NCBI RefSeq assembly: GCF_039555335.1
Contig: NC_092630.1
Span: 31,148,769 to 31,212,768 of the forward strand
DNA length: 64,000 nt
Reading direction: 5' to 3'
Source of the DNA: Amphiura filiformis
Lineage: Eukaryota
Position 1 is the first letter of the stretch. Each line of letters starts with the position of its first letter. Of this stretch, positions 1,873 to 54,947 are shown one piece after another. Made by a program: the position numbers and the translations under genes. The notes beneath the pieces were generated by a model, which was not told the origin of the DNA, ran no database searches, and was given only the letters and a program-made list of their open reading frames with translations.

Positions 1873-3990
1873 TTGTGTTTTTGCAGCTCTGTCGATTGGC
1901 AAAATCTTAAATATGTGGTCTACATGTGTAACTCCCATCAAAAACGGTACACCATTTCCATTGATATTTGCTCAAATTCACTGTTCAAAATGTTGGACAG
2001 AATTCAAGTGGTCACTCCAAGATGGCTTCTATCCACAACATATTGGGATCAAACCAGTGGCGGATCCAGGATTTTTGAAAAGGGGGGCACAAACTTAGAA
2101 ATTTCGGCGCGACAGCGGCGTTCGTCACGTTTGCGCGACGCGGGGGGATGTGCCCCCCTCAGAAGTGAGAAACTTTTACAAAATAAAGACCTAATTGAAG
2201 CCATTTGGTGGACCATTTTGTCACTACTATTGCGTAAAAATTTTAATTTGAAAAAGGTGAAAATTTGTGAAATGATGGTCCAATTGAAGTCATTTGTCGA
2301 CAAGTTTTCACTATTATTGTGTGAATTATTGCTCTTGGTTTGGGTGTCCAAAGCAGAAGCGAAAAGGGTAACTTCCTTATGCATACTCGGGGGGGGCGTC
2401 TGAGGGGCGCTTGCGCGACGCATTTTGCACAAGTGAGAAACTTGTGCAAAATGAAAACCTAATTGAAGCCATTTGGTGGACCATTTTGGCACTATTATTG
2501 TCTGAATTTTAATTTGAAAAAACCGAAAATTTGTGAAATGACGGTCCAATTGAAGTCATTTGTTGACAAGTTTTCACTATTATTGTGTAAATTAACTATT
2601 TTAAACTGTTGCGATTTGGTAGTTCACAGCATCTTGCAGGTAGTGAGATTTGGCCAAAATTGCATTGATCATTTCATAGCAAGCGTGTAGAATTCAAATA
2701 TTACAGATATACTTTTGTAGGTCCTGTGGATCTTGAGTTATGTTGTAAAGAGGGCTGAAACAACAACACTTTTGTAAAACGTATACATAATTCAACAACA
2801 AATCAAGCACGTTTTCAAATTATATAATTTGTAGAATGAACTTTTGCAAAACATCAAAGTGTTATTTTTCAATAATATAGGGGCCTACCGTATTGATTTA
2901 AATAATGAAAATCGAAGCAAGCAGAAGCGAAAAGGGTAACATCTTTATGCATATATGCAGGGGGTGTCTGAGGGGGAATGTGCCCCCCCCTCAGAAGTAA
3001 GAATTGTGTATTTTGTAAAGTTTCAATTATTTTGAAAAAGCCGAATATTTGTGAAATGACTGCCCAATTGAAGTCATTCATCGACACATTTTCACTACTA
3101 ATGTGTAAATTATTGCTTTAAACATAAAGGGTCTGGTGTCCAAAGAAGAAGTGAAAATGGCAACTTCTTTATGCATACGCAGAGGGTGTCTGAGAAGTTA
3201 GAAAATGTGTGAAAATGAAGGCCCAATTGAAGCTACTCGTAGACCATTATTCACTACTATTACCATGATTACTGTAGGCCTAATTATTAGGTTATATTAT
3301 TTCTTAAACATGTTAAAACATAAAGTGTACGGATGTCCAAAACAGAAGCGAAAACGGCTACTAGTTTATTTCCCCTCAGAAGTTTTGCAAAATGAAGGTC
3401 CCATTTAAGTCATTTGGTGCATATTTTTACACTATTATCATTGCTTTAACTCAATTTGCAAAATTTTAAATATTACACTTTATTGGACTTAGGCCTACAA
3501 AAGCATGCACGGATTGATGTTGAAGTCAGCATTGAGTCGTCTTAATAATACAGACGTTAGTCACAAAATGTGACGGGCCCTGCGTATCGGCGGGCCCGCA
3601 GTAATTTCACAGGCTTTTGGGCAGAGGACCCGCCTTCAAGCAATGCCTAAAATAATCACAGATATTAAACATGGATACGTTATACTCAATTACATGCAAA
3701 TGTTGTTTTTCTCTTCTTCTCCATTTCTCTTCTTTTCTTTCTCTCATTTTCGCAGCTTTTCGCCCCTTCTCTTTTCCTCATTTTTTTTTATCTTTTTTTT
3801 GGGCGGGGGCACACGGGCCAGTGTGCCCTTCCACCTGCCCCGCGACTGGTCCAAACAGAAGCCTAAGTGGGCACTTCTTTATCCATATGCAGAGGGAGGG
3901 TGTCTGAGGGAAGATGCACCCCCTCAGTATTTGGAAAAAATTAAAAATAAAGGCTGAATTAAAGCCATTTCATGGACCATGAAAGGGACA
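1873..3990. repeat. Cluster of at least 6 degenerate copies of a ~150-250 bp unit (..aagcagaagcgaaaagggtaacttccttatgcata..ggggtgtctgagg.. / ..gaagccatttggtggaccattttg.cactattattg..). Related copies lie at 13600-14060 in the opposite orientation.
   Basis: Copies at about 2190-2400, 2457-2600, 2900-3110, 3110-3230, 3340-3430 and 3850-3990 were aligned by eye. The ORFs here are spurious. Confidence 0.6.
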
Positions 3991-4209
3991 CGGTCCGGGT
4001 GTGCCCTGCATGGATCCGCGCCACGGCATGGGAGGCCGTTTATCATGATCAAATTGCGATTTATATCTTCCATAAAACATGTAAAAATGAAAAGCCAAAC
4101 AAAGGGTTTTTATTTTTTTTCCCAACAAAATAATATTGAAAAAAAAAAATAAAAAAATTAGGACCCTCGAAAAGGGGGGGCCGGGCCCGGTGTGCCCATG
4201 CCTGGATCC

Positions 4210-4880
4210 GCGCCTGGATCAAACTATACTGTGCCAAGAAAGTATCCTTACACTTGGAAAAATAATCACAATTTCAAAACTGAACCAAATTGGAATAAAT
4301 TTGTTTTTGTAATAGATGCACGATCTAATCCTGCACATTATATGACACCACATTCAATCCAATGTGACCTCAAGAAGTAAAGTTACAAGCAATTGAATAG
4401 ATAAATGTCCAGTTTCAAAAGTGACAAACTGGCCTATACAAGGCGCAAAAAGATTCCAACAAGCGCAACAAAGAGACAACACAGTTTCTTCAATGAAGCT
4501 TTATTCAAAGCATTTTTTAAAAAGTTTTTACTTCTCTGTACTTTTCATAACTTTCATTTCATTTGTTAGTTCTTTTGTTTCAGTTTTCTTTTGTTCCTTT
4601 TGTTTTAAATTAAAGGCACGCATAAATTAGCCATTCAACACTCTCAAACCAGATGTCTAGTCCGTAGAGTTTTGAATAGGTCAGTTTGTCACTTTTAAAA
4701 CTGGACCTTCGTCTAATCAAATGCTTGTAACTTTGCTTCTTGAAGTCAAATTGGATTCAATGGGGTGTCATAATGTGCCGGATTAGATAGTGCATGTAAT
4801 GAAAAAACAAATTTATTCCAATATGGTTCAGTTTTGAAATTGTGATTATTTTTTCAAGTATAAGGATACTTTTTTGGCGG
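4210..4880. mobile_element. Foldback/MITE with ~200-bp inverted arms (4225-4440 and 4680-4880) around a ~240-bp core.
   Basis: atactgtgccaagaaagtatccttacacttggaaaaataatcacaatttcaaaactgaacc.. is the reverse complement of ..ggttcagttttgaaattgtgattattttttcaagtataaggatac. Confidence 0.7.
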
Positions 4881-5689
4881 AGTATATCAGTTTGTGAACA
4901 CACCTGCAACCCAGCTCAATAATTCTGTTATTATATTGCTTAATGTATTTGTCATCCTGATTTAATTTCGACATCTTGCCAGATTTTGTCCTGACCTTAT
5001 TGTTCTTGTATTCTTGTATTGCTGGTATTTTTGTATTTAGCATTTGCTGAATAAAGGTTGATATTATAGCCACTGACTACTACAGACCAATCGCAACCAA
5101 TCAAAGTCCCCGTGTTTTGTATGCTGTAAATTCTCACATATTCATGCGGGGCGATTGTTCCATCGTGCCATGTCTCGCAATCATGCCATCGTTGCGTGCC
5201 TTCACGTATATTACTTTCCGTGTCTTTGCGAAGACCGTAAAAATATGCGGTACGTGCATATCAATTTCGCCTGTCGCATTTAATGGAACAATCTGCCCTC
5301 ATTATCGGGTGATGCTGAGACTTTGACTGGTTGCATCTCCAAGAAAGATCTTAAAAGACTCCAGAAACTGCAAAACAAGTCAGCAACCACGATCTGCTCA
5401 CATTACTCCACTTCTTGATCAACTGCACTGGCTCCCTGTCTCAGAAAGAATTACATTCAAAACTCTTCTCTATGTTTTTAAATCACTTAACGGGCTCTGT
5501 CCTCAGTACATTGATGCGTTCCTAAAAATAAGATAGCGGCCGGACTCTATGCGTACTCGTTCATCATCCTGTATCACATTGGAAATTCCATCATCCAGAA
5601 AACAAGCTGGAGACAGAACTTTTTCCATTGCTGCTGCTCAATCTTGGAATAGGCTTCATGTCACAATCATAAATGAACAATTTTTGGGA

Positions 5690-8600
5690 CGCGGAATTGT
5701 GCAGTACCGCGTGCGGTACTGCACACTTCCGTTCATGCGGAACTGCACATCCCGACCTGCATTCCCACATGCGGGAATGCATGTCGGGATGTGCAAGTAC
5801 CATATCTTGTACTGCAACATTTTGGTGCATTTCCGCTGGGGATGTGCAATATTTTTGGTGTTTTTCCGCATGGGGATGTGCAATATTTTCGGTGTATTTC
5901 AGCGTGGGGAACTGCAATATTTTGGTGCATTTCCGCTGGGGATGTGCAATATTTTTGGTGTTTTTCCGCATGGGGATGTGCAATATTTTTGGTGTATTTC
6001 CGGGATGTGCAATATTTTTGGTGTTTTTCCGCATGGGGATGTGCAATATTTTTGGTGTATTTCCGCCGGGAGGTGCAATATTTTTGGTGCATTTCCGTTA
6101 GGGGAACTGCAACATTTTTGGTGTTTTTCCGCATGGGGATGTGCAATATTTTTGGTGTATTTCCGCCAGGGATGTGCAATATTTTGGTGTTTTTCCGCCA
6201 GGATGTGCAATATTTTGGTGCATTTCCGTTGGGGATGTGCAATATTTTTGGTGCATTTCCGTTAGGGGATGTGCAATATTTTTGGTGCATTTCCGTTAGG
6301 GGAACTGCAACATTTTTGGTGTTTTTCCCGCATGGGGATGTGCAATTTTTTTGGTGTATTTCCGCCAGGGGATGTGCAATATTTTTGGTGTTTTTCCACG
6401 TGGGGACTGCAATATTTTTGGTGCATTTCCGCCAGGGGATGTGCAATATTTTTGGTGTTTTTTCCGCATGGGGATGTGCAATATTTTTGGTGTATTTCGG
6501 CGTGGGGAACTGCAATATTTTTGGTGCATTTCCGCTAGGGGATTTGCAATATTTAAATTATATTAAATTACTATCCTCCGTAAATTGATTGATAATCGAT
6601 CCACTTGAGAAATTCTCCGTTGGAACTTTAATAGAAAGTGGTCACAATGTCAAGTTGAATATATAATAGTCATCATTAAAGAGGCGTGTGAAATTGATTT
6701 TAATAAAATTAATTTTATACAATAAAGTTTGAGAATATTTGCAGTAAGTTATCAAAAATGTTTTTGAATATTCACCTCGTAAAGTATTAAAGCGCGCCGC
6801 GGCGCCGCCATAGCTTAATTCCATGATCTTGATCCTATTTTTATCGATATACATCGATTACTTATCGGATTAAGTATTGGACACAATAGATGAAGTATTT
6901 GATTGACAAGGTTACCCCTGCGTCCCCTAGCCGCTTGTCTATTAATGTGTGCATATTATAATTGATACCATTAGGCCTATATAATTATGAGAGCTTTAAT
7001 GAGGGGTTATAGTTTTTAGTCTGGTATGTCTGCCTATGCATGTTATGTTTCCATTTGTAAATTCATGTTTAAATGTGCTAGTGTGCGATGCATAATTCTT
7101 CTTTGCCCTGTATATTATATAAAGAATAACGATTAAGCATCATTTAATAATTTGAAATGTTTGTAATGTTTCCATGTTCCGGTGTATGATTTGTTTAATA
7201 TAGCTTTTACTATATCATGATATCGCATGTAAAGCTGCACCAAATATATTGCAGTTCCCCATGCGGACATGCGAACAAAAAACAGCTTTTGCCGTAAGCG
7301 TAGATCCAGGGGGATGAGGGGCTAAGGCTAAACCCCCTAATATTTTGCCAGAGTTCCATACAATCCCCCCCCCAATTTTGACGCCTGTACGACCCCTGTT
7401 AGGTTTATCTTAATTTAGCTATTTTAGATCCGAGACGAAAATACCTATTTCGTCTCAGTTTTAGATAGGTTTAGATGTCCTTTTCATGAATAAAATGCAC
7501 ACAATGTCAAGTTTATTACAATGGTCACTAAATAGATTCATCACAATAGCCACTTATCATTAAGCGACGTGCGATAATATTTTTAATATAATAAAATACT
7601 ATAGACTTTAAAGTTTATAACACTTTCTTTTAATTACAGCAAATGAAGCAAAACTCACAATAGGCTAATAGTCAAAGTAAAACGATAGTAATATTAAAGA
7701 AATTTATATAATTTTATGCATGTGATAATATTTTCTATGCCGCAGGGCCTACAAATAAAAAACAAAACAAATAAAACCAAAAACAAACAACAACAACTAC
7801 AACAACAAAAACCTTTTCGCCGCCGCTTTGACACGCTGAACTGTAGGGCATACAACTGCGTCTTGCATTCTCTCCCGGATTCTCTCATGAGGACATGCGA
7901 AAAAACATGTTCACCCCACATGCAGGGCTGCACGAAATTTCCGCACGCGGACATTCGAACAAAAACCATTCATTATGCAGAACTACACCAAAAATGTTGC
8001 AGTACCCCATGCGGAAATACACCAAAAATATTGCAGTTCCCCATGCGGAAAATACACCAAAAATATTGCACATCCCCTAACGGAAATGCACCAAAAATAT
8101 TGCAGTTCCCCATGCGGAAAAACACCAAAAATATTGCACATCCCCATGCGGATAAACACCAAAAATATTGCACATCCCCTAACGGAAATGCACCAAAAAT
8201 ATTGCAGTTCCCCATGCGGAAAAAACCCAAAATATTGCACATACCCTAACGGAAATGCACCAAAATAATGCACCAAAAATATTGCACATCCCCATGCGGA
8301 TAAACACCAAAAATATTGCACATCCCCTAAAGGAAATGCACCAAAAATATTGCAGTTCCCCATGCGGAAAAAAACCCAAAAATATTGCACATCCCCATGC
8401 GGATAAACAACAAAAATATTGTAGATCCCCTAACGGATAAACACCAAAAATATTGCACATCCCCTAACAGAAATGCACCAAAAATATTGCAGTTCCCCAT
8501 GCGGAAAAAAAACCCAAAAATATTGCACATACCCTAACGGAAATGCACCAAAAAATGCACCAAAAATATTGCACATCCCCATTGCACATCCCCTAACGGA

Positions 8601-9010
8601 AATGCACCAAAAATATTGCAGTTCCCCATGCGGAAAAAAACCAAAAATATTGCACATGCCCTAACGGAAATGCACCAAAAATATTGCACATCCCCATGCG
8701 GATAAACAACAAAAATATTGTAGATCCCCTAACGGAAATGCACCAAAAATATTGCACATCCCCATGCGGATAAACACCAAAAATATTGCACATCCCGCAT
8801 GCGGAAATGCACCAAAAATATTGCAGTTCCCATGCGGGACTGCACATCCCGACCGCCATCACCCCCATGCGGTACTGCACATCCCGACCTGCATCACCGC
8901 ATGCGGGGAATGCACGTCGGGATGTGCAGTCCCGCATGCGGAAGTGCGTGACGGAAGGTGCAGTTCCGCATGCGGGACTGTGAGCGGAAGTGTGCAGTAC
9001 CGCACGCGGT
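5690..9010. mobile_element. Large foldback (TU-like) element. The left arm (about 5790-6560) and right arm (about 7900-8870) are inverted tandem arrays of a ~31-bp unit (ggggatgtgcaatatttttggtgtatttccgc..). The outer inverted flanks are GC-richer (5690-5800 and 8810-9010). The central spacer is about 1.3 kb.
   Basis: About 24 tandem units per arm in opposite orientation. The outer flanks gcagtaccgcgtgcggtactgcaca.. and ..tgtgcagtaccgcacgcggtactac are reverse complements. The long ORFs here are repeat artefacts. Confidence 0.8.
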
Positions 9011-9440
9011 ACTACACAGATAGCAGTTGCTTTTAATACCTGCAGAAATGCTCAAAACATAAACAGTTTCAAAACAGCTCTCAAATCTCTTTGTACTTCT
9101 CATGATACAAAGAGTCATGTCACCATTGTTATATTTAATTATTGCTTAATGTTTATATATTTGATCTTTTGTGTTTTGCTTACCAGCACTTTGAAACTTT
9201 ATTGAAAAGGCGCTTTATAAATGTTGTAGTATATGTATGTATGTATATGTTGCGATTGGTCTGTTATCTTTTTTGTCCATGATTACAACATAGATGAAGC
9301 ATACACAATAACAAACCATTATTTCACATAATGTTCTGGAGTTTATTAAAATATAAATCACCTGTTCTGCACATATAAACAATATAATGAATATATTTCA
9401 ATATAATAAACTATTTTTAACAGTTTCATATCTAATGTCA

Positions 9441-9530
9441 AGTAGTAGTCAAGTTAGCTCAATCGATAAGGCGTTTGACTATGATGCGAGAGGTTGCGGG
9501 TTTGAACCCCAATCTGCTGCTTCAACATAA
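9441..9530 (+). ncRNA. tRNA-derived SINE head. It is not a canonical tRNA. A second copy is at 31085-31160.
   Basis: gtcaagttagctcaatcgataaggcgtttgactatgatgcgagaggttgcgggtttgaacccc has D-arm and T-arm-like boxes but no proper anticodon stem or acceptor pairing. It is nearly identical to 31085-31150. Confidence 0.55.
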
Positions 9531-10380
9531 TTTACTCATACTATCTTTGCGTCCTTACTAAACCTCTGAATTCATATAGCATCTCATAAATATCTATATA
9601 TACATGGATAGAGTAAAATAATAAGTACACATATTCTGTTCTTTTGACAGAGCTCTATTTATGTTCACAAATTAAATAATAAACAGCACTAACAAGAGCT
9701 ATTTATTGGTAAAATTATTGTCACACACCAAATGGAACATTTTAGTATAAGTTGGTAAAATACTTCACACCTGTATATTGATTATTCAATTCATTTATAT
9801 TCACATCATTTATTTAATTCTAACCTTAACCCAGTGTCTTAGCTTGCCACCCGTCTGACCGTCATTTTAGACGGGGAGTTTGCTCCTGGGACGGGCAAAA
9901 TTAATGCCTTTGACAGATGCTACATTATAATTGTAGGTGTTTAGAAAGTCTTTTTTTTTCTTCCTTTTTAGTAGACCAGGTTTGCAAAACAAGGCTATAA
10001 CAGGACATATTTGAACTCTTTGAACCCCCAATGGGCTGTAGAAGTCTGGTAAATGTTTTAAAGGTCAAATTGGGACAGGCAAATTTATTCAAATGATGGG
10101 CAAATCTTAATTTCTAGCTAAGACCCTGCCTTAATCCCTGCCATAATCTAACCCTAAATTTTATATGTATTCTACCAGTAACCTTTATCCTAACCCTATA
10201 AAATATAATCGTAAGGTAAGATATAAGGATAGTCCCAGGTTAATCCGTATTTCATACTTTCAAATACTATTTGAAAAATGATTGTATAAACATGTCCATT
10301 ACAACTTGAATCCATTTCTTATATACACCTCATATACAAAGAATAATATCAATGGCAAATATTTGTGCAGAGTTATATAA

Positions 10381-10756
10381 TACCCCGTTTACATTGGGCA
10401 AAAGTCGTAATCGACTTAAGCTGTATTTTGAATTACGACAGCAGATTAAATCGTTTGGTGGGTGTTTACACTACATCGGCTGAATTCGATTCCAAATTCG
10501 CATTCACAAATATCGAATTCGTTTGTTACATGTGGTTACAGCAGGTGTTTGTTTACATTAGCGAAAAGTCGTAATTAATGACGACTTATTCGAATTCACA
10601 TAAAATGAATGATGATGCAAGTCATCATTGGAATTACGACTTTTGAATTACGATTAATTACGACTGTACCTGTTTACACGTATGATACGAATTAAGTCGA
10701 TTACGACTTTAGTGAATTCGATTACGACTTTCGCCCAATGTAAATGGGGTATACAG
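10381..10756. mobile_element. MITE with ~35-bp TIRs (ataccccgtttacattgggcaaaagtcgtaatcgac .. gattacgactttcgcccaatgtaaatggggtat). It is flanked by TA dinucleotides, so probably Tc1/mariner-like (Stowaway-type).
   Basis: The TIRs are reverse complements. Internal sub-repeats contain ttacgact. Flanks are ..tatA|ataccc and ggggtat|Acag. Confidence 0.7.
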
Positions 10757-11519
10757 CTCACGGCTTTAATCAAATCTTCAATTTGGACAGTGTATCCCTG
10801 ACTACATTCTTACTCTTTGAAACATTTGAATTACTTTTTTATACAATGTTTTTGAATCACCAGTCAAAACAGGCATCCGCCAATAAAACACCATCCTTCT
10901 AAAAATATGGATACAAAGTGCTTAGTCCAGCTATCACTATTATTACAATTTGAGTGGGCAATCATATAAAATGTCTGTAAATATTGCATAATCACTTCAC
11001 CTATTTTATTACGGTACATAGACAATAATAGTGAAAATAAATAATATTTTTAAATATATTTTTAACTTCTGACGAAACTACTTGGTTCCATATTAAGAGA
11101 ATTTATTATCCATAATATATTAAACTTTAATGATTTTCAAAATATATTTTTTATCCCTGAAAATTAGTACGAATATTCAGAGTTTACAATATATTTAGGA
11201 TAGGTTGGGTTACACCAATTGAACAGTTGGTTTTCTTAGGCCTTTAACACCAGACTTATAATCTTTATAATAATTTAGCCATGATTAAAACTATCATAAT
11301 CAAGTGAAAATATACATTATATAAGGCAAACTTTCCCTACAAGATGTTTAAATATATCTACTAGAAATAGTTTCTCTCATGATCTGAAATTGACACTACC
11401 AGTACCATCACTATCCTTATAACAGGAACTGCAACAACACCCACAGACCTATAGTTACAAACTATACAAATTAATAATTGGAAAACTAGTAACCTCACCT
11501 GAAAAAAACAAATCCACCA

Positions 11520-11825
11520 ATCAGTGGCGTAACTAGGGTTGGTAGCGCCCGGGGCATGAAACAAAATTGGCCCCCCCGAGAATTTTTAATTCTTGGACAA
11601 ATAAGGCCTACCACTAATTAATTTTGGTTACTAGAAGTTGAATATCGGTCTTAAAATGTTCTTTCAATTGATTTTGTGCTGAAATGCGCTTGACGCGTGC
11701 GAAAATTTTGACTTTCATCACTTGGAGGGGCGCAGAATCGATGCTGAATTGGTCAATTTGGCGCCCCCCTAACGGTAGCGCCCAGGGCATGTTGCCCCCC
11801 CTAGTTACCCCACTGCCACCAATTA
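11520..11825. mobile_element. MITE with TIRs cagtggcgtaactagggttggtagcgcccggggcatg .. catgccctgggcgctaccgttagggggg..ctagttaccccactgccacc.
   Basis: Clear inverted termini. Related CAGTGGCG/CAGCAGGGGCG-type termini occur at 37443-37775 and in fragments at 2057 and 14020. Confidence 0.65.
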
Positions 11826-26599: not shown

Positions 26600-27830
26600 G
26601 CGGCGCGGTGATCCACCCAAAAAAACAAAATCATCGTATAGATCCCTGGTACTAGGTGCATCTTGACCCCAGCATAAGTTTGTATTGGTTAGTGGGTCAA
26701 GGTCACCTGAGGTCATCCAGGGGTCATCTGAGGTCAAATTTGCAAAAACTGTTGTAGGGGCATGAAACCGTGGGTACAGTCAACATTTGGAGTCAAATTT
26801 CGGGAAGGTCATCCGGGGTCACCCAGGGGTCATCTGAGGTCAAATTACTAAAAACTCGTATGGGCATGAAACTTGGTGGGTACAGTCAACATTTAAAGTC
26901 AAATTTTGGGAAGATACTAAAAATTGTCGTATGGGCATGAAACTAGGTGGGTACAGTCAACATTTGGAGTCAAATTTTGGGAAGGTCATTTTGAGGTCAT
27001 CCGGGGTCACCTGAGGTCAAATTACTAAAACTGTCGTATGGACATGAAACTTGGTGGGTACAGTCAACATTTGGAATCAACATTTTGGGAAGGTCATTTT
27101 GGGGTCACCCAGGGGTCATCTGAGGTCATATTACTAAAAACTGTTGTATGAACATGAAACTGGATACAGTCAACATTTGGAGCCAAATTTTGTGGGGTCG
27201 CATGTTCCTCGAACTTGGTGGGTGCATCTTGACCCCAGGCAGAACAAGTTTGTATTGGTTAGTGGGTCAAGGTCACCTGAGGTCATCCAGGGTCATCTGA
27301 GGTCAAATTAGCAAAAACTGTCATATGGGCATGAAACTTGGTGGGTACAGTCAACATTTGGAGTCAAATTTTTGGAAGGTCATTTCAGGGTCAACCGGTG
27401 TCACCCAGGGGTCATCTGAGGTAAAATTGCTAAAAATGTTGTATGGGCATTGGTGGGCACGGCCAACATTTGGAGCCTAATTTTGTAGGGTCGCACAGAA
27501 CAAGTTTGTATTGGATAGTGGGTCACGGTCAACAGAGGTCATCCAGGGGTCATCTGAAGTCAAATTAGCAAAAACTGTCGTATGGGCATGAAACTTGGTG
27601 GGTACAGTCAACATTTAGAACCAAATTTTTGGAAGCTCATTTCGAGTCAGCCAGGGGTCACCTGAGGTCAAATTACTAAAACTGTCGTATGGGCATGAAA
27701 CTTGGTGGGTACAGTCAACATTTGAAGTCAAATTTTTAGAAGGTCATTTCGGGGTCATCTGAGGTCACCATTTAGAGCAAAATTTTTGGGAGGTCATTTC
27801 GGGTCGACTGAGGTCAATTTAGATGAATTC
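26600..27830. repeat. Satellite-like tandem array of about 9-10 copies of a ~125-bp unit (..ggtcatctgaggtcaaattactaaaaactgtcgtatgggcatgaaacttggtgggtacagtcaacatttggagtcaaattttgggaaggtcatt..).
   Basis: Repeated units with internal ggtca-rich sub-motifs. Flanking gggaagcatgttcctcaaacttggtgggtg segments at 26280 and 27190 suggest a higher-order unit. Confidence 0.8.
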
Positions 27831-32039: not shown

Positions 32040-33200
32040 CAGATCCCCAATCTCTCTTCCAAGTACCTTGTACCTTGTACCTTGTACCTTGTAGATATCA
32101 CTCCCGAAGAGTCCACCAGGGACTATACTGGAAGTTGACGAGAGTGGTCCGGTGGTCTAACGGGGGCTGTGAAGTTGGTGGTCTTGGTCTTGGATGGAAG
32201 TCTTGAAGGTGGCGTGAGGTGGGCATGTCAACTGAAGATTGAGGAAGGCGTTCCAAAGGGAAATGGCTTCGGGGAAAAAAGACTGGATGGAGGGTGTGGA
32301 GGTGTGGTGTTGCACTTGAATTGCTTGTCGTGGCTTCGTCTGGATCTGGAGGCTTTCTTCTTGGTGTATAAGTCGGCGCCGAGGTCGATGTCCTGGTTGA
32401 TGATTTTATGAAGGGTAGTTAGTCGGAGCGTCTGGCGTCTGGTTTCGATGAGGTCCCATTTAAGGTCGGTGAGCATTTTTGTGACACTTGATTTTTCGCC
32501 TAAAGTCGCTGCACACAAAGCGAGCTGCTCTTCGTTGGACTTTCTGAAGAATTTGTTTATTTTCTTCGTACCAGGGTTCCAAGCAGCGGAAGCATACTCC
32601 AAGTGTGGTTGAACAATGGTTTGGTACAGGTTTTCTTTAACAGTTTTGGAACAATGATGAAAGTTTCTCTGAACAAAGTTTTCTTCCAGGGTTTCACCCA
32701 TCATAGAATACTTCGCAGAACCTGGTTGTCTTTTCCTGGACACCCTCATTACTTTGCATTTGGATGCGTTAAATCTCATGCCCCAGTCTTTGGACCAATT
32801 AACAAGACGTGTGAGGTCGGACTGAAGAGAACTTTCGTCTGCTTGCGAATTTATGGCTTTATATATAATGCAGTCGTCTGCAAACAGTCTTGTAGTCGAT
32901 TCAACAGCATCGGCGATGTCATTTATAAACAAAATGAAAAGGTGCGGGCCCAACACTGTGCCTTGGGGCACACCGCTCAGGACTGGTTTCCAGGCTGAAG
33001 TACAACCGTTGACCCTTACCCTCTGGAGACGGTCGGTGAGAAAAGCTTCAATCCACCGGGAAGTTTTATTCCTAATACCATAAAACTTAAGCTTCTGCAG
33101 TAAGCGCTGGTGGGGCACGACATCAAACGCCTTACTGAAGTCTAAGATGGCGATGTCAGTCGTCTGATTATTATTATGGTTTGTAGTCAGGTCATGAAGA
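32040..33200 (-). mobile_element. CR1/L2-like non-LTR retrotransposon fragment (RT plus 3' UTR), ending in a (CCTTGTA)n microsatellite at 32055-32098. It lies in the MVP intron between exons 13 and 14.
   Basis: RT ORF plus a short tandem-repeat 3' tail typical of the CR1 clade. The 5' end is abruptly truncated near 33200. Confidence 0.75.
32228..33118 (-). CDS. Reverse-transcriptase ORF (296 aa) of a 5'-truncated CR1/L2-like non-LTR retrotransposon. RT similarity continues upstream to about 33200 (..LDFSKAFDVVPHQRLL).
   Basis: ORF contains SGVPQGTVLGPHLFILFINDI .. LFADDCIIYK .. (RT domains 4-6, FADD catalytic motif). Upstream out-of-ORF translation reads RKKLIATLHDLTTNHNNNQTTDIAILDFSKAFDVVPH. 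Confidence 0.85.
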   Translation of the reverse strand: MPHQRLLQKLKFYGIRNKTSRWIEAFLTDRLQRVRVNGCTSAWKPVLSGVPQGTVLGPHLFILFINDIADAVESTTRLFADDCIIYKAINSQADESSLQSDLTRLVNWSKDWGMRFNASKCKVMRVSRKRQPGSAKYSMMGETLEENFVQRNFHHCSKTVKENLYQTIVQPHLEYASAAWNPGTKKINKFFRKSNEEQLALCAATLGEKSSVTKMLTDLKWDLIETRRQTLRLTTLHKIINQDIDLGADLYTKKKASRSRRSHDKQFKCNTTPPHPPSSLFSPKPFPFGTPSSIFS

Positions 33201-33635: not shown

Positions 33636-33878
33636 AATACCGTAAAACCTCGTCTACAAGCATATAGTGTGTTTTTGATGAAAGCTAAATTGAAATGAGA
33701 CAGCCGTAAATATGCCAATACAATAGATTGGTCTTACAATAGTACTTGTTTGTATATGTTTGTATCGGTAATTAATTTGCTCAAACTCAATAATATTATA
33801 ATTTAGTTGATGGATGGCGTGTGAATTAATTTAGCTTTCATCAAAAGCACTCTATATGCTTATAGACGAGGTTTTACG
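33636..33878. mobile_element. MITE with TIR TACCGTAAAACC(T/C)CGTCTA(C/T)AAGCATATAGTG. A second copy lies at 41338-41560. This copy starts 38 bp from the acceptor of MVP exon 13.
   Basis: taccgtaaaacctcgtctacaagcatatagtgtg .. cactctatatgcttatagacgaggttttacggta. Confidence 0.7.
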
Positions 33879-34279
33879 GTATCAGTTTGAATCAAATATC
33901 TACTATTTTGTAAACGGGTGCAGTTTGTGATCCAGAGTTTCCTTTGAATCTTTCTGTTTGATTTAACCACAATATTACAGTACAGCACAGCAACAAATAT
34001 AAATTGAACAAAATTTGCTTCTCGACTTTTCCATCCATGCTTTTCATATTCTTTGCAAATATACATCACTGATGTTTTGTAACAACAGAATGAACAGATA
34101 TCTGACCTAGTAGTAGCTACTTCTGGCTTCCACCTGCCCTAAAATCATTCTTGGAAGTCATAGGCCAAACTTGTATTTTATATGCATACAGTAAATGTAT
34201 AGGGCAACAGATAATTCGACCTGAAACAGATTCCACAGATACACATTACTGGCTAGACTCTATTCAGACAGCTACTAAC

Positions 34280-41337: not shown

Positions 41338-41560
41338 ATACCGTAAAACCCCGTCTACAAGCATATAATGTGCTTCTGATGAAAGCTACATTAATCCAGT
41401 CGCCATTATGGAGTTTGAGCAAATAAATTACGGATCCAAGAATATACAAACAAGTATTATTTTAAGACCGATCTATTGTATTGGTATATTAATGCTTGCT
41501 TCGAATTAATTAAGCTTTTATAAAAAACACTATATATGCTTGTAGACGGGGTTTTACGGT
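41338..41560. mobile_element. Second copy of the TACCGTAAAAC-TIR MITE, in the MVP intron between exons 7 and 8.
   Basis: accgtaaaaccccgtctacaagcatataatgtgc .. cactatatatgcttgtagacggggttttacggt. Confidence 0.7.
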
Positions 41561-41831
41561 ACTCTATTTCACTACCTCCAGTCAGCAGCACTTGCTTTGA
41601 AGTTCAGCATGTTCTACATTAGCTTAGCGTTACTTGGTGTGTGTACATACTTTTTACATGCGCGATCAAAGTGGCGCAAGAAATAACGCTAAGCTAATGC
41701 AGCACACGCAGACCTTCAAAGCTTGTGCAAAAAAGAGGTAGTGAAATAGGTATACTAGTTTCAGGAAATGGGAGTATATAAACCAGAGTCATGCAGATCT
41801 TAACAAACCTAATATGGACTGGGCTTCTTAC

Positions 41832-42648: not shown

Positions 42649-43211
42649 CTGTAAGTGTGAGGGATAGCATATATAGCAGGCTTTATATTGTTTACCCTTT
42701 CAAATAAAAATCTAAGCATTGGTATATAACTACATGTATTATCAATTTATTTATTGTAAATGTACAACAGCTTATGTATATCAGATAGCTGGATCAGAAA
42801 GAATTTGCAAATCTTGATCAGATACTGCAAAAATAAGGGATTTGGACTTGATTTTTGCAACATCTTTTGACTCCGCAATGCTTTATCTGTGACAATAGAC
42901 CAAATGGCTTTTGTCAAAAGCTTATAGACCATTCATATGTAAAGGATACCGCATGTGCTCTAATAAACACACCCTCTAATAACGGCCCCATAAATAATTC
43001 CATAACAAAGTGACCAAAATGCAGATATATTCATACCATATCTGGTTCTGGTTCTGGTCGAGTCGGCATTGCCAGACATGCTGTACTTCACCAACTTCGC
43101 GGTCAAAGGTCTATGCGCATTTAATGGCGTCGCGTCGCGAAAAGAGCTAATTAATGAAGTTTATTTTTGAACATTTCCCCGCTCGTCGCTGTCACTGTCG
43201 TCTCGTCGAGG

Positions 43212-44054
43212 TCATTCCAGTCGGTCGTCGTTCTGTGGAAGTAGCTGAATTTGTGCACATCCTTCCTGATCAGCTCCCTTCTTCCTGCTCATTCTTCTGT
43301 GAGTTCTAGTAAACCAAGGAAGATTTCTTCTGTTGGATGACATTTTGGTTGGAACGTTCTCCTCCATCACTTGTTTGATCTTTCTATCAAACATGTCCCA
43401 TTTTTCTTGGACAGTGAGGTTGGCTTCATTTCTGAAGGAGTCACCAAAGATCTTCATGTCTTGCTTTATCTTCTCCACATCAGCCTTGTGCTTCAGGTAG
43501 ATCTTGTGGGGAGGTTTCTTCTTTACTTGAGCAAATCCATTTAGCACCGATAGCACAGCCTCATGATCACTTAAGCCTGGTATGACTTCCACATTCTTGA
43601 TGAAGGAAGAGTTGTTGGTGAGAACCAAATCAAGTATGCTGTTGAGTCTGGTTGGTTTGTCAACCACCTGTTCTAAGCCATGCTCTTGTACAGTCTGAAG
43701 CAGCCTCTCTGCAGTTGTTTTGGATGCCGGATGGTTTACAATCACCGTCTTGTTTACCCAGTCTATGTTTGGTTGATTTAAGTCACCCTGTATGACTACG
43801 TCCTTGAGTTTGGAGTGGTTGTTGATGTTTTCTAACATCACCGCTAGGTCTTCGACCGTTTCTATATCATCATGCTTGGGCTTATACAATGTTCCAAACA
43901 GTATAGGTCTTCTCCCCTGGATATCAAGTTGACACCAAAGCATCTCACTGTTTGTTTCCAGTTCTTGTCTACGGTTGACTGGTAGGTCCTTCCTGTATGC
44001 AAAAAAGACACCACCATGTCTATCCGTCCCACTAGATCTATCTCTCCTGTGCAA
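43212..44054 (-). CDS. APE-type endonuclease domain ORF (280 aa) of a non-LTR retrotransposon.
   Basis: Motifs ..LWCQLDIQGRRPILFGTLYKP .. VIQGDLNQPNIDW .. TRLNSILDLVLTN .. IPGLSDHEAV, the typical EEP/APE layout of ORF2 N-termini. Confidence 0.8.
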   Translation of the reverse strand: MHRRDRSSGTDRHGGVFFAYRKDLPVNRRQELETNSEMLWCQLDIQGRRPILFGTLYKPKHDDIETVEDLAVMLENINNHSKLKDVVIQGDLNQPNIDWVNKTVIVNHPASKTTAERLLQTVQEHGLEQVVDKPTRLNSILDLVLTNNSSFIKNVEVIPGLSDHEAVLSVLNGFAQVKKKPPHKIYLKHKADVEKIKQDMKIFGDSFRNEANLTVQEKWDMFDRKIKQVMEENVPTKMSSNRRNLPWFTRTHRRMSRKKGADQEGCAQIQLLPQNDDRLE

Positions 44055-44138
44055 AGCGTATCCATCTGGCAGAAATTCAGCATTTTCTATTGAAGAGTCT
44101 AGCCATGTCTCTGTCCCATGGATGAAGTCGGTTTTAGT

Positions 44139-44744
44139 TCATGAATCATAGCCTCCCATTCCGCACGCTTGTTCATGATGCTCTGGAAATTTATGTTCAG
44201 AGTAGTAAACAACATCTCTCTCCAAGTTCTTCTTGCTTGCGGGCTTCCTTTTATTTTTGGTCCTGTCAGTTTTGTCTCTGTCGTTGTCCCCACTCTTGTT
44301 GTCCTTGTCATTGTCTTCAGTGTCGTCATCATTGTCAGTAGTCTCTCCTTCAGTTGAAGAAAAATACGAGTTGGTGAAGCAAGTTATCTCACAGTGCGGA
44401 CACAACCAGTTGAAAGATTTATTTGTGAGGGTATCATAAGTATCATTATCCATTCCAGCACAGGCACAGTGTGTCCATGCCCCGCATGCATCACACTCCA
44501 GGCCCTCCTCTCCAAATTTTACGTTGTCAACACACATGGTACAGGGAGATGTACACTCTGGACAAGACCACTGTTTTCCATTTCTGATTTGGTTGAAATC
44601 ACCTGTTGATACACCACAGCAGCTGGCATGGTAATCTTGGCTGCACTCACCACATGTAATCCATCTACGGTTATGACTTCCCTGTCTGCCACACACATTA
44701 CACTCCCTTGCTAGCTGGTTTTCCTGATTGATGGGGATTACCAT
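44139..44744 (-). CDS. Cysteine-rich ORF (201 aa) with two PHD-type zinc fingers, followed by an acidic Asp/Thr-rich tail. Putative ORF1-like protein of the same retroelement.
   Basis: C4HC3 spacing: CNVCGRQ..WITCGECSQDYHASCCGV..WSCPEC and CTMCVDN..LECDACGAWTHCACAGMD..NWLCPHC. It lies immediately upstream of the EN ORF on the same strand. Confidence 0.65.
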   Translation of the reverse strand: MVIPINQENQLARECNVCGRQGSHNRRWITCGECSQDYHASCCGVSTGDFNQIRNGKQWSCPECTSPCTMCVDNVKFGEEGLECDACGAWTHCACAGMDNDTYDTLTNKSFNWLCPHCEITCFTNSYFSSTEGETTDNDDDTEDNDKDNKSGDNDRDKTDRTKNKRKPASKKNLERDVVYYSEHKFPEHHEQACGMGGYDS

Positions 44745-45699
44745 TGTTGAAAAAGGTTGCGATGAAAAAGATTGAGCGTTGTGATGCTCCTACTCCCGCT
44801 TATGATGCACACCAAAAAAGTTCAAAACACTGCAACACAATTTATTTCACTAGTTCACAAAGTTCACGAAATTAACACCAAAAACTGCAATGTTAAAAGG
44901 ATGATGCACTGCGATTTAAATATCTCCTGGCACGACGCTTTTAAAAACAGGATACATCCACTAAACGAAAATCATTTAAAAGTTAATAAAACGATGCAGG
45001 AAACGTTCCGTCTACTTGGTGCACGCTTCAATATCATGTCAGTAATAAGCATATCATGTCAGCAATATCATGTGAGTAATAAGCTTATAACTGGCATTTA
45101 TCATGTTTGCTGCATGTCACAATCGCATAATTGCATAATTGCAAGGATAAAACGTATTGTCAACTTCAACTTAGTCCATTGCCAAATTTTTCACTTACAA
45201 ATGCATTTTGTGATGATACTATCGATAAATCACCACGTACAAATAGTGTTTACATCGGCCACCATTTTTACCTGTCAGCAAGTCACATTTAGCCCTGATG
45301 GTTAAGCTGGCATAGCAGATTGCCTTACAAAAGATTGCCTCTAATAAATACACCCTTTTGGAAAATGCAATGCCTGACCTCAGTGTGTTTAATATAGAGG
45401 AAATAAAGTATTTGAGGAAATCCTGAGGCACATCCATGAATGACAAGACTAGAAAGAATCATAAATGTACATATGCACCTTACATAAAATAATGCACACC
45501 ATTCTATATCAATAAACAATGTTCTGAGTCTCATTTTGTTCACCATTTATAAGCTGAACAAACTAAAGGTGAACGAACATTGACATAGTGTGAGAATGTG
45601 TGATGCCAATTTGGTGCCATTCAAGAGTGCTGATTGGTAACAACTACATCACAAATCATCACATATTTATGTACTGTGTTCACATTTTGTTCACCTAGT

Positions 45700-53085: not shown

Positions 53086-53809
53086 ACAGAGAGATGAGAG
53101 GCCCCACAGCACAGGGGAAATTGCCCAAGTTGTCAACCCGTTGTCAACAATTGTCAAAATAGTCAAAGGGGGCTATCATTTTCTGGAAGAGGGTCCCAAA
53201 TCTTCTAAAAGTCAGCATCAATTGCGACCCCCTATTTCAGCAACAAAAATTTTATGACCCCCCACCAGTGACATGCTCAAAGGGGGCGGGGGTGGGCAGG
53301 GGGCATGTAGTTTTTTCAAAAGTCACGGAAATGCACCGAATCAGGGGAAAATTAAGTGGAATTCCAGCGTACGAAACTAGGGGTCTATCGGTGTAGAAAT
53401 TTTCATCAAAAGGGGGTCATAGGCCTATACGGTGTTGGCAATGTCAAAAATGGGGTGATTTTGCAATATGGGACGCCCAAAATGTCACATCACACACAAT
53501 TAAAAATACCTTTTTACCTAATTTTACAGTACAAAATAGACAAAACTCATTTATTTTGCTCAAAATGCACGCGAAGCAAGCCGAAATTTCAATTTTGAGG
53601 ACCAATTGTTCAAGGAGGTCATTCAGTGTAGGCTATATAGGCCTAGGCCTACTGGAAAAAACCGGGGTCATTGGGTGTAGGATTTGCCAAAAATAAGGGG
53701 TCTTTTCATGGGCACATGACTATGTCAATATATGGGAGTGCCTCCCCTGGGACCCCCTATTTTTCTTTCCAAAATTAATGACCCCCCCCCATATGATCCC
53801 TATGATAGC

Positions 53810-54700
53810 AATGGTAGGGTCAGATGCTATCTACTGATGATAGCAATGGTAGGGTCAGATGCTATCTACTGATGATAGCAATGCTAGGGTCAGATGCTAT
53901 CTACTGATTATATCAATTGTAGAGTCAGATGCTATCTACTGATGATAGCAATGGTAGGGTCAGATGCTATCTACTGATTATATCAATTGTAGAGTCAGAT
54001 GCTATCTACTGATGCTATCTACTGATGATAGCAATGGTAGAGTCCGATGCTATCTACTGATGATAGCAATGGTAGAGTCAGATGCTATCTACTGATGATA
54101 GCAATGTTAGGGTCAGATGCTATCTACTGATGATAGCAATGGTAGGGTCAGATGCTATCTACTGATTATATCAATTGTAGAGTCAGATGCTATCTACTGA
54201 TGATAGCAATGGTAGGGTCAGATGCTATCTACTGATTATATCAATTGTAGAGTCAGATGCTATCTACTGATGCTATCTACTGATGATAGCAATGGTAGGC
54301 AGATGCTATCTACTGATGATAGCAATGGTAGGGTCAGATGCTATCTACTGATTATATCAATTGTAGAGTCAGATGCTATCTACTGATTATATCAATTGTA
54401 GAGTCAGATGCTATCTACTGATGCTATCTACTGATGATAGCAATGGTAGGCAGATGCTATCTACTGATGATAGCAATGGTAGGGTCAGATGCTATCTACT
54501 GATTATATCAATTGTAGAGTCAGATGCTATCTACTGATGATAGCAATGGTAGGGTCAGATGCTATCTACTGATTATATCATTTGTAGAGTCAGATGCTAT
54601 CTACTGATGATAGCAATGGTAGGGTCAGATGCTATCTACTGATGATAGCAATGGTAGGGTCAGATGCTATCTACTGATGATAGCAATGCTAGGGTTAGAT
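53810..54700. repeat. Minisatellite of about 24 copies of a ~35-bp unit (gatgctatctactgatgatagcaatggtagggtca, alternating with the variant gattatatcaattgtagagtca). A short 4-copy array of the same unit lies at 57520-57670.
   Basis: The tandem periodicity is directly visible. Both arrays are followed by the same ~270-bp block (54690-54960 matches 57665-57915). Confidence 0.9.
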
Positions 54701-54947
54701 ATTATATCACTCATACATAAATTCTAGACAGTTCATTGGTTGATTACCATTTATCATTTTTACCATCACCCACTCCGTGTGATAGTCTTTACCATCATAG
54801 TGCTCTGTCAGAGTGCGCCTGCGCCTAAGTCATGCGCTGACTCTTGGACTCGCCGATTTAGTTATGGGGTGGACCCCAAAATGTGAAGTATATCACGGCA
54901 AAACATGGTGTTATGTTAATGAAAAAATGTATTTCTTACCTTAAATA

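Follow-up and report, generated by a model that had tools for sequence, protein, structure and literature searches.

The window is a stretch of 64,000 nucleotides of the Amphiura filiformis genome, and all coordinates given here refer to it. Two open reading frames (ORFs) were identified close together on its minus strand, one at 44744-44139 (201 aa, starting with ATG) and the other at 44054-43212 (280 aa, listed with a TTG start). They share one frame, and a single TGA (44141-44139) stands between them. An earlier note had assigned tandem PHD fingers to the first and an endonuclease (EN) to the second, and Pfam searches confirmed that both ORFs are real: PHD (PF00628, E 3.9e-12) matched the 201-aa ORF in two stretches, and Exo_endo_phos_2 (PF14529, E 3.3e-12) was also recovered. 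The two fingers span residues 15-64 and 67-117, and both fit the C4HC3 pattern proposed for them when inspected by eye, the first reading C-x2-C-x12-C-x2-C-x4-H-x2-C-x19-C-x2-C. The start codon (ATG, 44744-44742) and the first finger together occupy 44744-44553 (-) and are homologous to 'MGASKETKVCNVSD...YYHIKC' of L001 and 'MNMLPKSPQQDRQCGICHRKGSSNRRWISC' of the sea urchin copy L003; the start codon of the family is homologous across three species. The second finger (44546-44394, -) aligned with the PHD of P0003, P0004, P0006, P0007, P0009, P0010 and P0072. It is followed at 44393-44223 (-) by a linker that is first Asp-rich and then Lys-rich, which is in frame in the A. filiformis paralog P0001 ('...ETTDNDDDTEDYDNDNKSGDDDITDSTKNKRKPASKKSLRKEMLFTT...') and reads as a native portion of a single ORF. 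Of the acidic tail previously ascribed to the PHD ORF, the last ~27 residues (ERDVVYYSEHKFPEHHEQACGMGGYDS) are the N-terminus of the EN read out of frame.

No ORF was found upstream of the PHD start in the window copy. Upstream of the ATG every frame contains stops, and 44960-44745 (-) is probably the 5′ UTR, its extent being tentative. Positions 44960-44894 showed weak similarity (72%, E 0.013) to L003 4119-4180, in the repeat-containing 5′ part of that sea urchin copy, and a motif of 17-19 nt at 44864-44846 recurs in the L003 5′ repeat.

The main part of the APE-type endonuclease domain, from DFIHGTETWL to GLSDHEAV, lies at 44129-43557 (-) and is the region matched by PF14529. The invariant motifs TETW, Y, GDxN, PT(R), D and DH are all kept, and the conserved motifs N, E, Y, D-N, D and D-H predict an endonuclease of the APE type, as in LINEs. 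Together with the Pfam matches, these motifs uphold the identification of a non-LTR retroelement copy with two PHD fingers and an APE-type EN. The 280-aa ORF begins some 50 residues into the EN domain. Recovery of the EN by domain search, which the earlier note had anticipated, succeeded with PF14529 and fell short with PF03372, which spanned the whole profile (positions 2-225) only on the frame-corrected protein and scored 20.4 bits there, under the Pfam cut-off of 24.5 bits; the RT-bearing relative P0007 also scored below this cut-off.

Three-frame translation located an N-terminal segment of the EN, 'REMLFTTLNINFQSIMNKRAEWEAMIHELKP', at 44221-44130 (-), out of frame with both flanking parts. 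The peptide is identical or near-identical in P0001 and P0003 and contains the nearly invariant Asn of LNINFQS; read in the PHD frame, the same segment gives the TGA at 44141-44139. Codon-by-codon comparison with P0001 ('KKSLRKEMLFTT') placed a first frameshift, net -2 nt, at 44222-44219 (-), where GAGA stands in place of Arg-Lys codons. A second frameshift, of -1 nt, was placed at 44129 (-) by reading at the nucleotide level: CCG-GAC is read as CCGAC, and the original frame is restored, while P0001, P0002 and P0003 read 'L(K/Q)PDFIHGTETWL' without a break. The two deletions put 31 N-terminal codons of the EN out of frame, and the in-frame TGA results. Because P0001 and P0003 read continuously from PHD through the linker to EN, and L001, L003, P0072 and P0087 join PHD, EN and RT in one frame, both window ORFs are pieces of one ancestral PHD-EN-RT ORF, split by two frameshifts. 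The proposal of two separate ORFs, an ORF1-like PHD protein plus an EN, does not agree with the single PHD-EN-RT ORF of the relatives, and the layout in the window is a frameshift artefact of such an element. The description 'stop-free' is true of each ORF but misleading as to coding integrity, given the two frameshifts and the TGA. Since the frameshifts fall in a GA-rich run and a 2-nt homopolymer, they could be assembly errors.

The EN frame continues to a TGA at 43214-43212. Out of frame with it, a remnant of an ORF C-terminus, 'LIRKDVHKFSYFHRTTTDWNDLDETTVTATSGEMFKNKLH', followed by TAA (43153-43151), was found at 43273-43151 (-). This remnant matches the last residues of the RT protein P0069 (56% identity over 43 aa, E 2e-17), residues 969-1002 of P0072, residues 1010-1039 of the L001 conceptual ORF and L003 11647-11751, and is 78% identical to L002 at the nucleotide level (E 1e-9). 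These matches indicate that 43273-43151 encodes the C-terminal ~40 residues of the family. As a consequence of the frameshifts and of a deletion described below, the catalytic motifs of the EN are not all contained in any one ORF, and the tail stands in a different frame.

Beyond the stop codon lies a 3′ UTR (43150-43041, -) with nucleotide identities of 79% to L002 and 73% to L001. It contains a predicted hairpin, in which a stem at 43096-43089 pairs with 43068-43061 and is extended by a 3-bp upper stem, and it ends in the tandem repeat (ACCAGA)x3 at 43058-43041 (period 6 x3.0 by Tandem Repeats Finder). There is no poly(A) at the element end; a hairpin and short tandem repeats are found instead, as in the CR1/L2 lineage. 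A 3′ UTR block followed by short repeats is also present in L003, L004 and L005, and block, hairpin and terminal repeats are common to six elements. RNAalifold analysis of the six sequences gave 11 pairs, three of which persist despite changes on both sides. Since the window 3′ UTR folded alone was no more stable than shuffled sequence (z = 0.44), support for the hairpin is comparative only; a search of Rfam gave no match. Similarity to relatives stops at 43041, close to the ~43030 estimated earlier, and beyond the repeats the sequence is not conserved between loci. Position 43041 is the true 3′ end of the element. A search for target-site duplications (TSDs) found no direct repeat of at least 9 nt adjoining the 3′ end.

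In agreement with the earlier claim that the reverse transcriptase (RT) is missing, no RT signature was found between 44744 and 43041. The region after the EN (43556-43275, -), up to '...NLPWFTRTHRRMSRKKG', is 99% identical to P0002, which runs on past 'RKKG' as '...RKKGRMYSKAKRTGDQKDW...'. Alignments of this left arm end at residue 422 of the L001 conceptual ORF, at nt 9900 of L003 and at about residue 387 of P0072. The junction lies at 43280-43274 (-), where homology from the left stops at 43275 and homology from the right starts at 43273 (L002) or 43279 (L003). The arms adjoin without intervening sequence, and the homologies may overlap by ~5 nt. A microhomology of 5-6 nt (AGGGA/G) is possible at the junction as judged from sea urchin sequence only, and both it and the right breakpoint were placed by cross-species comparison, not by an A. 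filiformis parent. What is missing amounts to ~580 codons (~1.75 kb), from the linker after 'RKKG' through the whole RT. The order of similarity, L003 > L002 > L001, is identical for both arms, which fits a single element of origin. These alignments argue that the RT is gone through an internal deletion of ~1.75 kb and that the true 3′ end was kept. The deletion could have arisen either in place, through microhomology-mediated repair or slippage, or during insertion, through a template jump of the RT.

The earlier note had itself raised the possibility of an RT contiguous downstream, and none was found. An RT-like ORF on the same strand at 33214-32228 was considered as the missing RT and rejected: it lies 10 kb downstream, shares only ~38% identity with the RT of the family, carries a frame-shifted tail of its own and belongs to another family.

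We consider it likely, with a probability of roughly 0.85, that the region from ~44960/44744 to 43041 (-) represents a LINE (non-LTR retrotransposon) copy that is dead and has suffered an internal deletion. Under this reading the source family would fall within the Jockey superfamily, in its CR1/L2 lineage, as either a CR1- or an L2-type element. Its intact form would be one ORF of ~1000-1090 aa encoding two PHD fingers, an acidic/basic linker, an APE-type EN, the RT and a conserved C-terminal tail ('...KDVHKYSFFxRTxxxWNxL...FKxxL'), followed by a hairpin-bearing 3′ UTR that ends in a short tandem repeat. The RT lies downstream of the EN in the same ORF in L001/P0007, L003, P0072 and P0087; P0001, P0003, P0072 and P0087 are continuous, with the PHD N-terminal in the EN-bearing ORF and no ORF1. 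Because the RT is missing here and present in these RT-bearing relatives, the window copy would be a defective derivative of the family and not an autonomous member, and it is probably non-functional as a protein-coding unit. The best protein matches were from A. filiformis itself (P0001, 92% identity; P0002, 99%), and near-identical paralogs sit on other chromosome-scale contigs. The 99% amino acid identity to P0002 suggests that the copy is young, in keeping with the earlier suggestion of a recently altered copy. Judging from the families concerned, the EN of intact members would nick the target and reverse transcription would be primed at the nick. The RT would bind its own RNA by way of the hairpin and repeats at the 3′ end, and a probable role of the PHD fingers would be to read chromatin.

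The architecture of the family, a CR1/L2-type LINE with a single ORF and an N-terminal PHD, has already been described, and occurs in 'L2 subgroup 4 and CR1 subgroup 6' (Metcalfe & Casane, 2014; PMC4120745). As in those subgroups, the PHD precedes an APE-type EN and RT in one ORF without a separate ORF1, and a repetitive region lies 5′ of the PHD, here seen in the sea urchin copy. Unlike them, the present family has two tandem C4HC3 fingers in place of the single PHD reported, and the window copy is without RT. The Type III ORF1 of CR1-like elements also holds a PHD (Kapitonov & Jurka, 2003; Khazina & Weichenrieder, 2009; both as cited in PMC4120745). In that cited account the PHD likewise precedes the EN in LINEs of CR1/L2 type, but is encoded in a separate ORF1, whereas here it is fused to EN-RT and the separate 'PHD ORF' of the window results from frameshifting.

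Both parental termini of the element (ORF start and 3′ terminus) are present and the internal ~580 codons are absent, which is the structure of SIDEs, short internally deleted derivatives of non-LTR elements such as Persaeus from CR1-Zenon (PMC6740152); Ag-Sponge, R2 SIDEs and TbRIME are cited there as further examples. The likeness extends to the retention of LINE 5′ and 3′ ends, the deletion of the internal RT-coding part and the proposed origins by microhomology or template jump. However, known SIDEs are short, multi-copy and demonstrably mobilised, whereas here there is one 1.7-kb copy with PHD and EN coding sequence and no evidence of amplification. For an L2-clade LINE no cis element other than the 3′ tail is required, and this tail permits mobilisation in trans (PMC1636434). 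UnaL2 and ZfL2-2 resemble the window copy in ending with short tandem repeats directly preceded by a conserved stem with an internal loop, but their sequence is unrelated, and the hairpin here is a prediction from six sequences only. Since it retains the 3′ cis-signal, the window copy could in principle be copied in trans if it were transcribed.

The deletion, and perhaps the frameshifts, may predate insertion in a mobilised SIDE-like family, whose RNA, transcribed from the 5′ end that was kept, would have been copied in trans by an autonomous relative able to recognise the hairpin and repeats still present at the 3′ end. We regard this as unlikely. Both ends are kept, including the ORF start and a complete 3′ cis-signal, the tail of UnaL2 (L2 clade) suffices for mobilisation in trans (PMC1636434), CR1-derived SIDEs exist (PMC6740152), and the copy is young by its identity to P0002. 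Against this, the junction was seen in no second copy in the 64-kb window, annotated proteins or JGI metagenomes, which are poor samples of the host genome: blastn and tblastn within the window found no other copies, and a junction scan of the JGI metagenomes (metagenomes, not host genome) gave 0 matches. Furthermore, no TSD was found, the closest paralogs P0001 and P0002 are without the junction and keep the reading frame over the second frameshift site at least, and SIDEs are reported to be rare and mostly of low copy number (PMC6740152). That the copy belongs to an actively trans-mobilised, internally deleted brittle-star LINE family, keeping the 5′ end, PHDx2-EN coding and the 3′ recognition hairpin with no RT, is a shade less likely again. 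If true, it would be an echinoderm case of a long SIDE, which may still provide PHD-EN protein or compete for it; if many copies carry the junction, it would exemplify a kind of internally deleted LINE derivative that is seldom reported.

LINE copies are normally severely 5′-truncated, and the 3′ 235 nt (43273-43041) may be what is left of another related element after such truncation, lying directly against a 5′ fragment unrelated to it, as a chimera or as two adjacent insertions. A tail-only protein search gave no candidates for an Amphiura parent of the 3′ arm, as such an origin would allow; a search for RT plus tail with sea urchin sequence gave 4643 matches at E <= 1e-60, and among the 120 of these that were listed the only A. 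filiformis protein was 43% identical, so that these matches point to no autonomous partner in the same genome. Genomic loci for the Amphiura paralogs P0001, P0002 and P0004 are not on record. However, this explanation needs the 5′ fragment to be 3′-truncated exactly at the 5′ end of the other copy, and the arms are on the same strand, collinear, directly abutting (with homologies that may overlap by ~5 nt) and alike in ranking L003 > L002 > L001, so that we consider it very improbable.

To the suggestion that the copy is a domesticated host gene for a PHD or PHD-EN protein we give slightly less credence still. The 201-aa ATG-initiated ORF keeps both fingers, all EN motifs are still recognisable, and the PHD-EN ORF would be open for ~510 codons if both frameshifts were assembly errors; but the reading frame is disrupted as assembled, the transposon tail and 3′ UTR are kept, near-identical paralogs lie on other chromosome-scale contigs, and exact-product look-ups found neither window ORF on record as a gene. 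The 478-aa 'RT-less homolog' of sea urchin, in turn, is an incomplete gene model that covers part of a contiguous PHD-EN-RT element (L003). A genuine 3′ truncation, as the earlier note had read the locus, is negligible: the element has no RT further downstream and its similarity to relatives stops around 43030-43041, but the last ~40 codons, stop codon, 3′ UTR hairpin and terminal hexamer repeats are all present at 43273-43041.

The internally deleted LINE copy is ordinary genomic debris, neither 3′-truncated nor a domesticated gene. Because the RT was lost by internal deletion, the apparent anomaly of a 3′-truncated LINE at this locus is removed, which is of little importance beyond annotation. 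Gene models without RT that are annotated as 'uncharacterized protein' in A. filiformis and S. purpuratus (for example LOC115921297) are fragments of this PHD-EN-RT transposon family, and the family, with its tandem PHD fused to EN-RT and conserved 3′ hairpin with hexamer repeats, could join echinoderm repeat libraries. In the relative L004, a 2A-like peptide, absent from the window copy, lies upstream of the PHD.

ORFs are sparse in this eukaryotic DNA of ~37% GC. Two on the minus strand belong to the element, one of 201 aa with an ATG start (44744-44139), carrying PHD fingers, and one of 280 aa (44054-43212), carrying an endonuclease (EN) domain. Pfam matched PHD (PF00628) to two stretches of the former (E 3.9e-12) and Exo_endo_phos_2 (PF14529, 'Endonuclease-reverse transcriptase') to the latter (E 3.3e-12). 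Both fingers (residues 15-64 and 67-117) fit the C4HC3 pattern, and no reverse transcriptase (RT) was found in this copy, confirming, as far as it went, the earlier note on two PHD fingers, an APE-type endonuclease and an absent RT.

The proposal of two separate ORFs did not hold. Three-frame translation placed both in one frame with a single TGA between them (44141-44139), and the endonuclease N-terminus, REMLFTTLNINFQSIMNKRAEWEAMIHELKP, was read in a different frame, overlapping the end of the supposed acidic tail. The frame-corrected conceptual protein was compared with a large protein database, and the nearest A. filiformis proteins, P0001 (92% identity) and P0002 (99%), were encoded on separate chromosome-scale contigs. 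P0001 continued uninterrupted through '...KNKRKPASKKSLRKEMLFTTLNINFQSIMNKRAEWEAMIHELQPDFIHGTETWLDSS...', as did the sea urchin protein P0003. Codon-by-codon comparison located two frameshifts, a net loss of 2 nt at 44222-44219, where Arg-Lys codons have become 'GAGA', and a loss of 1 nt at 44129, where CCG-GAC has become CCGAC; the out-of-frame stretch between them spans 31 codons. Only once the frame was corrected did the protein align along the full PF03372 profile (positions 2-225), and in an 11-sequence alignment all of the conserved endonuclease motifs were kept (Asn of LNINFQS, TETW, Y, GDxN, PT(R), D and DH). As assembled, the shifted segment contains the Asn of LNINFQS, and the Glu of TETW falls after the TGA but before the first in-frame ATG, so no single ORF could give an active nuclease. 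The frameshifts, which fall in a GA-rich run and a 2-nt homopolymer, could be assembly errors, but even then the copy would lack RT and carry a transposon 3' end.

The missing RT had been attributed to 3' truncation. After '...THRRMSRKKG', P0002 goes on 'RMYSKAKRTGDQKDW...'; the window departs exactly there, at 43275, and directly downstream another frame reads 'LIRKDVHKFSYFHRTTTDWNDLDETTVTATSGEMFKNKLH*'. We compared this tail with five loci of RT-bearing relatives: L001 and L002 (ENA assembly ERZ25070167; L001 encodes P0007, with PHD, EN and RT, and a finger upstream of the called gene makes two), L003 (the Strongylocentrotus purpuratus locus of P0003), L004 (the locus of P0072, an intact 1003-aa PHD-EN-RT protein) and L005 (the locus of P0069). 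All share an ORF-terminal motif, for example '...KKDVHKYSFFPRTIADWNQ' in L002 and '...FVKKDVHKYSFFHRTAADWNKLDEDTATASTSETFKQRLQM' in P0069. The window tail matched the last 43 residues of P0069 (56% identity, E 2e-17) and the nucleotide sequence of L002 (78% identity, E 1e-9), so that the loss is an internal deletion and not a truncation. The left arm and tail covered residues 4 to ~387 and 969-1002 of P0072, codons 5-422 and 1010-1039 of the L001 conceptual ORF (1048 codons), and 8578-9900 and 11647-11751 of L003, and therefore the copy has lost ~580 codons (~1.75 kb), the entire RT among them. At the junction (43280-43274) the two homologies may overlap by ~5 nt ('AGGGA'), a possible microhomology judging only from the sea urchin sequence. 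The deletion puts the tail out of frame, and the endonuclease frame runs past the junction for 20 unrelated codons to a TGA (43214-43212). Locus look-ups and protein searches retrieved no full-length A. filiformis copy.

Downstream of the tail stop codon (TAA, 43153-43151), block 43101-43041 was 79% identical to L002 and 73% to L001, and recurred in L003, L004 and L005. A short tandem repeat closes the block in every element and marks the limit of similarity: (ACCAGA)x3 in the window (43058-43041), (AACAGA)n in L002, L003 and L005, (AACTGA)n in L004 and (GAA)n in L001. RNAalifold predicted a hairpin from six sequences, with an 8-bp lower stem (43096-43089 with 43068-43061) topped by a 3-bp upper one; three pairs were kept despite changes on both sides, two of these being broken in one sequence each. 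Folded alone, the window 3' sequence was no more stable than shuffled sequence, so the hairpin is supported modestly and by comparison alone. CR1/L2-type LINEs have this kind of 3' end, in which a hairpin and terminal repeats stand in place of poly(A). [quoted passage not shown] The conserved block, hairpin and repeats therefore identify the limit of similarity noticed earlier near 43030 as a real one, but as the 3' terminus of the element rather than a truncation point.

At the 5' end, the ORFs of L001 ('MGASKETKVCNVSD...') and L003 ('MNMLPKSPQQDRQCGIC...') have starts homologous to the ATG at 44744. No ORF1 lies upstream of this ATG, stops occurring in all frames; the sequence there only weakly resembles the repetitive 5' region of the sea urchin element, where a 356-bp x2.2 tandem repeat lies (L003 3591-4372), and no target-site duplication was found around the window copy. 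An intact relative, L004 (ctg337089), encodes a 2A-like ribosome-skipping motif, 'LLVLAGDISTNPGPG', in another frame just upstream of the first finger (~2790-2830). Such motifs are reported in APE-type LINEs (PMC3708506); the window copy has none.

The window copy derives from a single-ORF PHDx2-APE-RT LINE of CR1/L2 type, and its internal deletion and frameshifts have left it dead. The family fits the single-ORF LINEs with an N-terminal PHD described in PMC4120745, with two fingers here against one there; the authors of that paper note that the function of PHD in LINEs has yet to be tested. The copy shares its layout with SIDEs, internally deleted LINE derivatives that are known but called rare, for which microhomology or template-jump origins have been proposed (PMC6740152); here the layout is known from one copy. 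Nothing supports the domestication suggested earlier. A 478-aa sea urchin 'PHD-type domain-containing protein' (61% identity) looked like a conserved RT-less homolog, and was rejected as such because its locus holds a contiguous PHD-EN-RT-tail frame (L003 8599-11739; 52% identity to the L001 conceptual ORF over 1055 aa), making it a transposon copy. This frame is interrupted by a single stop, and a nested inverted non-LTR element (7788-4924) parts the first finger (4691-4816) from the rest (8578-11751); the NCBI model, LOC115921297, is a partial model of the LINE copy at 3591-11751 (AAGJ06000001.1). The Amphiura models P0001, P0002, P0004, P0006 and P0008 are likewise partial, P0004 ending, by eye, in frame-shifted sequence, and no gene called elsewhere is recorded for either window ORF product.

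P0001 and P0003, respectively brittle star and sea urchin transposon copies, share ~60% amino acid and 68% nucleotide identity, including 35 consecutive identical residues at the endonuclease N-terminus (LNINFQSIMNKRAEWEAMIHELQPDFIHGTETWLD). This is high for such distant classes, and may be due either to strong constraint or to horizontal transfer. Family members L001, L002 and L004 (ERZ25070167) and L005 (Tara Oceans, ERZ28654925) come from metagenome assemblies, on animal contigs of low (~4x) coverage, presumably because the samples contained DNA of echinoderms or other marine invertebrates.

An RT fragment at 33214-32228 on the minus strand (PF00078, E 1.6e-26) was rejected as the missing RT, since it lies 10 kb away, shares only ~38% amino acid identity with the RTs of L001 and L002, and carries a frame-shifted C-terminal motif of its own ('FFPR..W..LP', near 32290). 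This is the usual kind of 5'-truncated copy, from a different CR1/L2-like family. Long tandem-repeat arrays occupy 5700-6555, 7975-8980, 26655-27770 and 53800-54730; the first two are mutually inverted (~80% identity) and produce spurious long ORFs on both strands, such as 5733-6515 and 5791-6588. A small element at 41338-41561, with internal inverted repeats (41339-41395 and 41561-41505) and a second copy at 33638-33882 (77% identity), looks MITE- or SINE-like.
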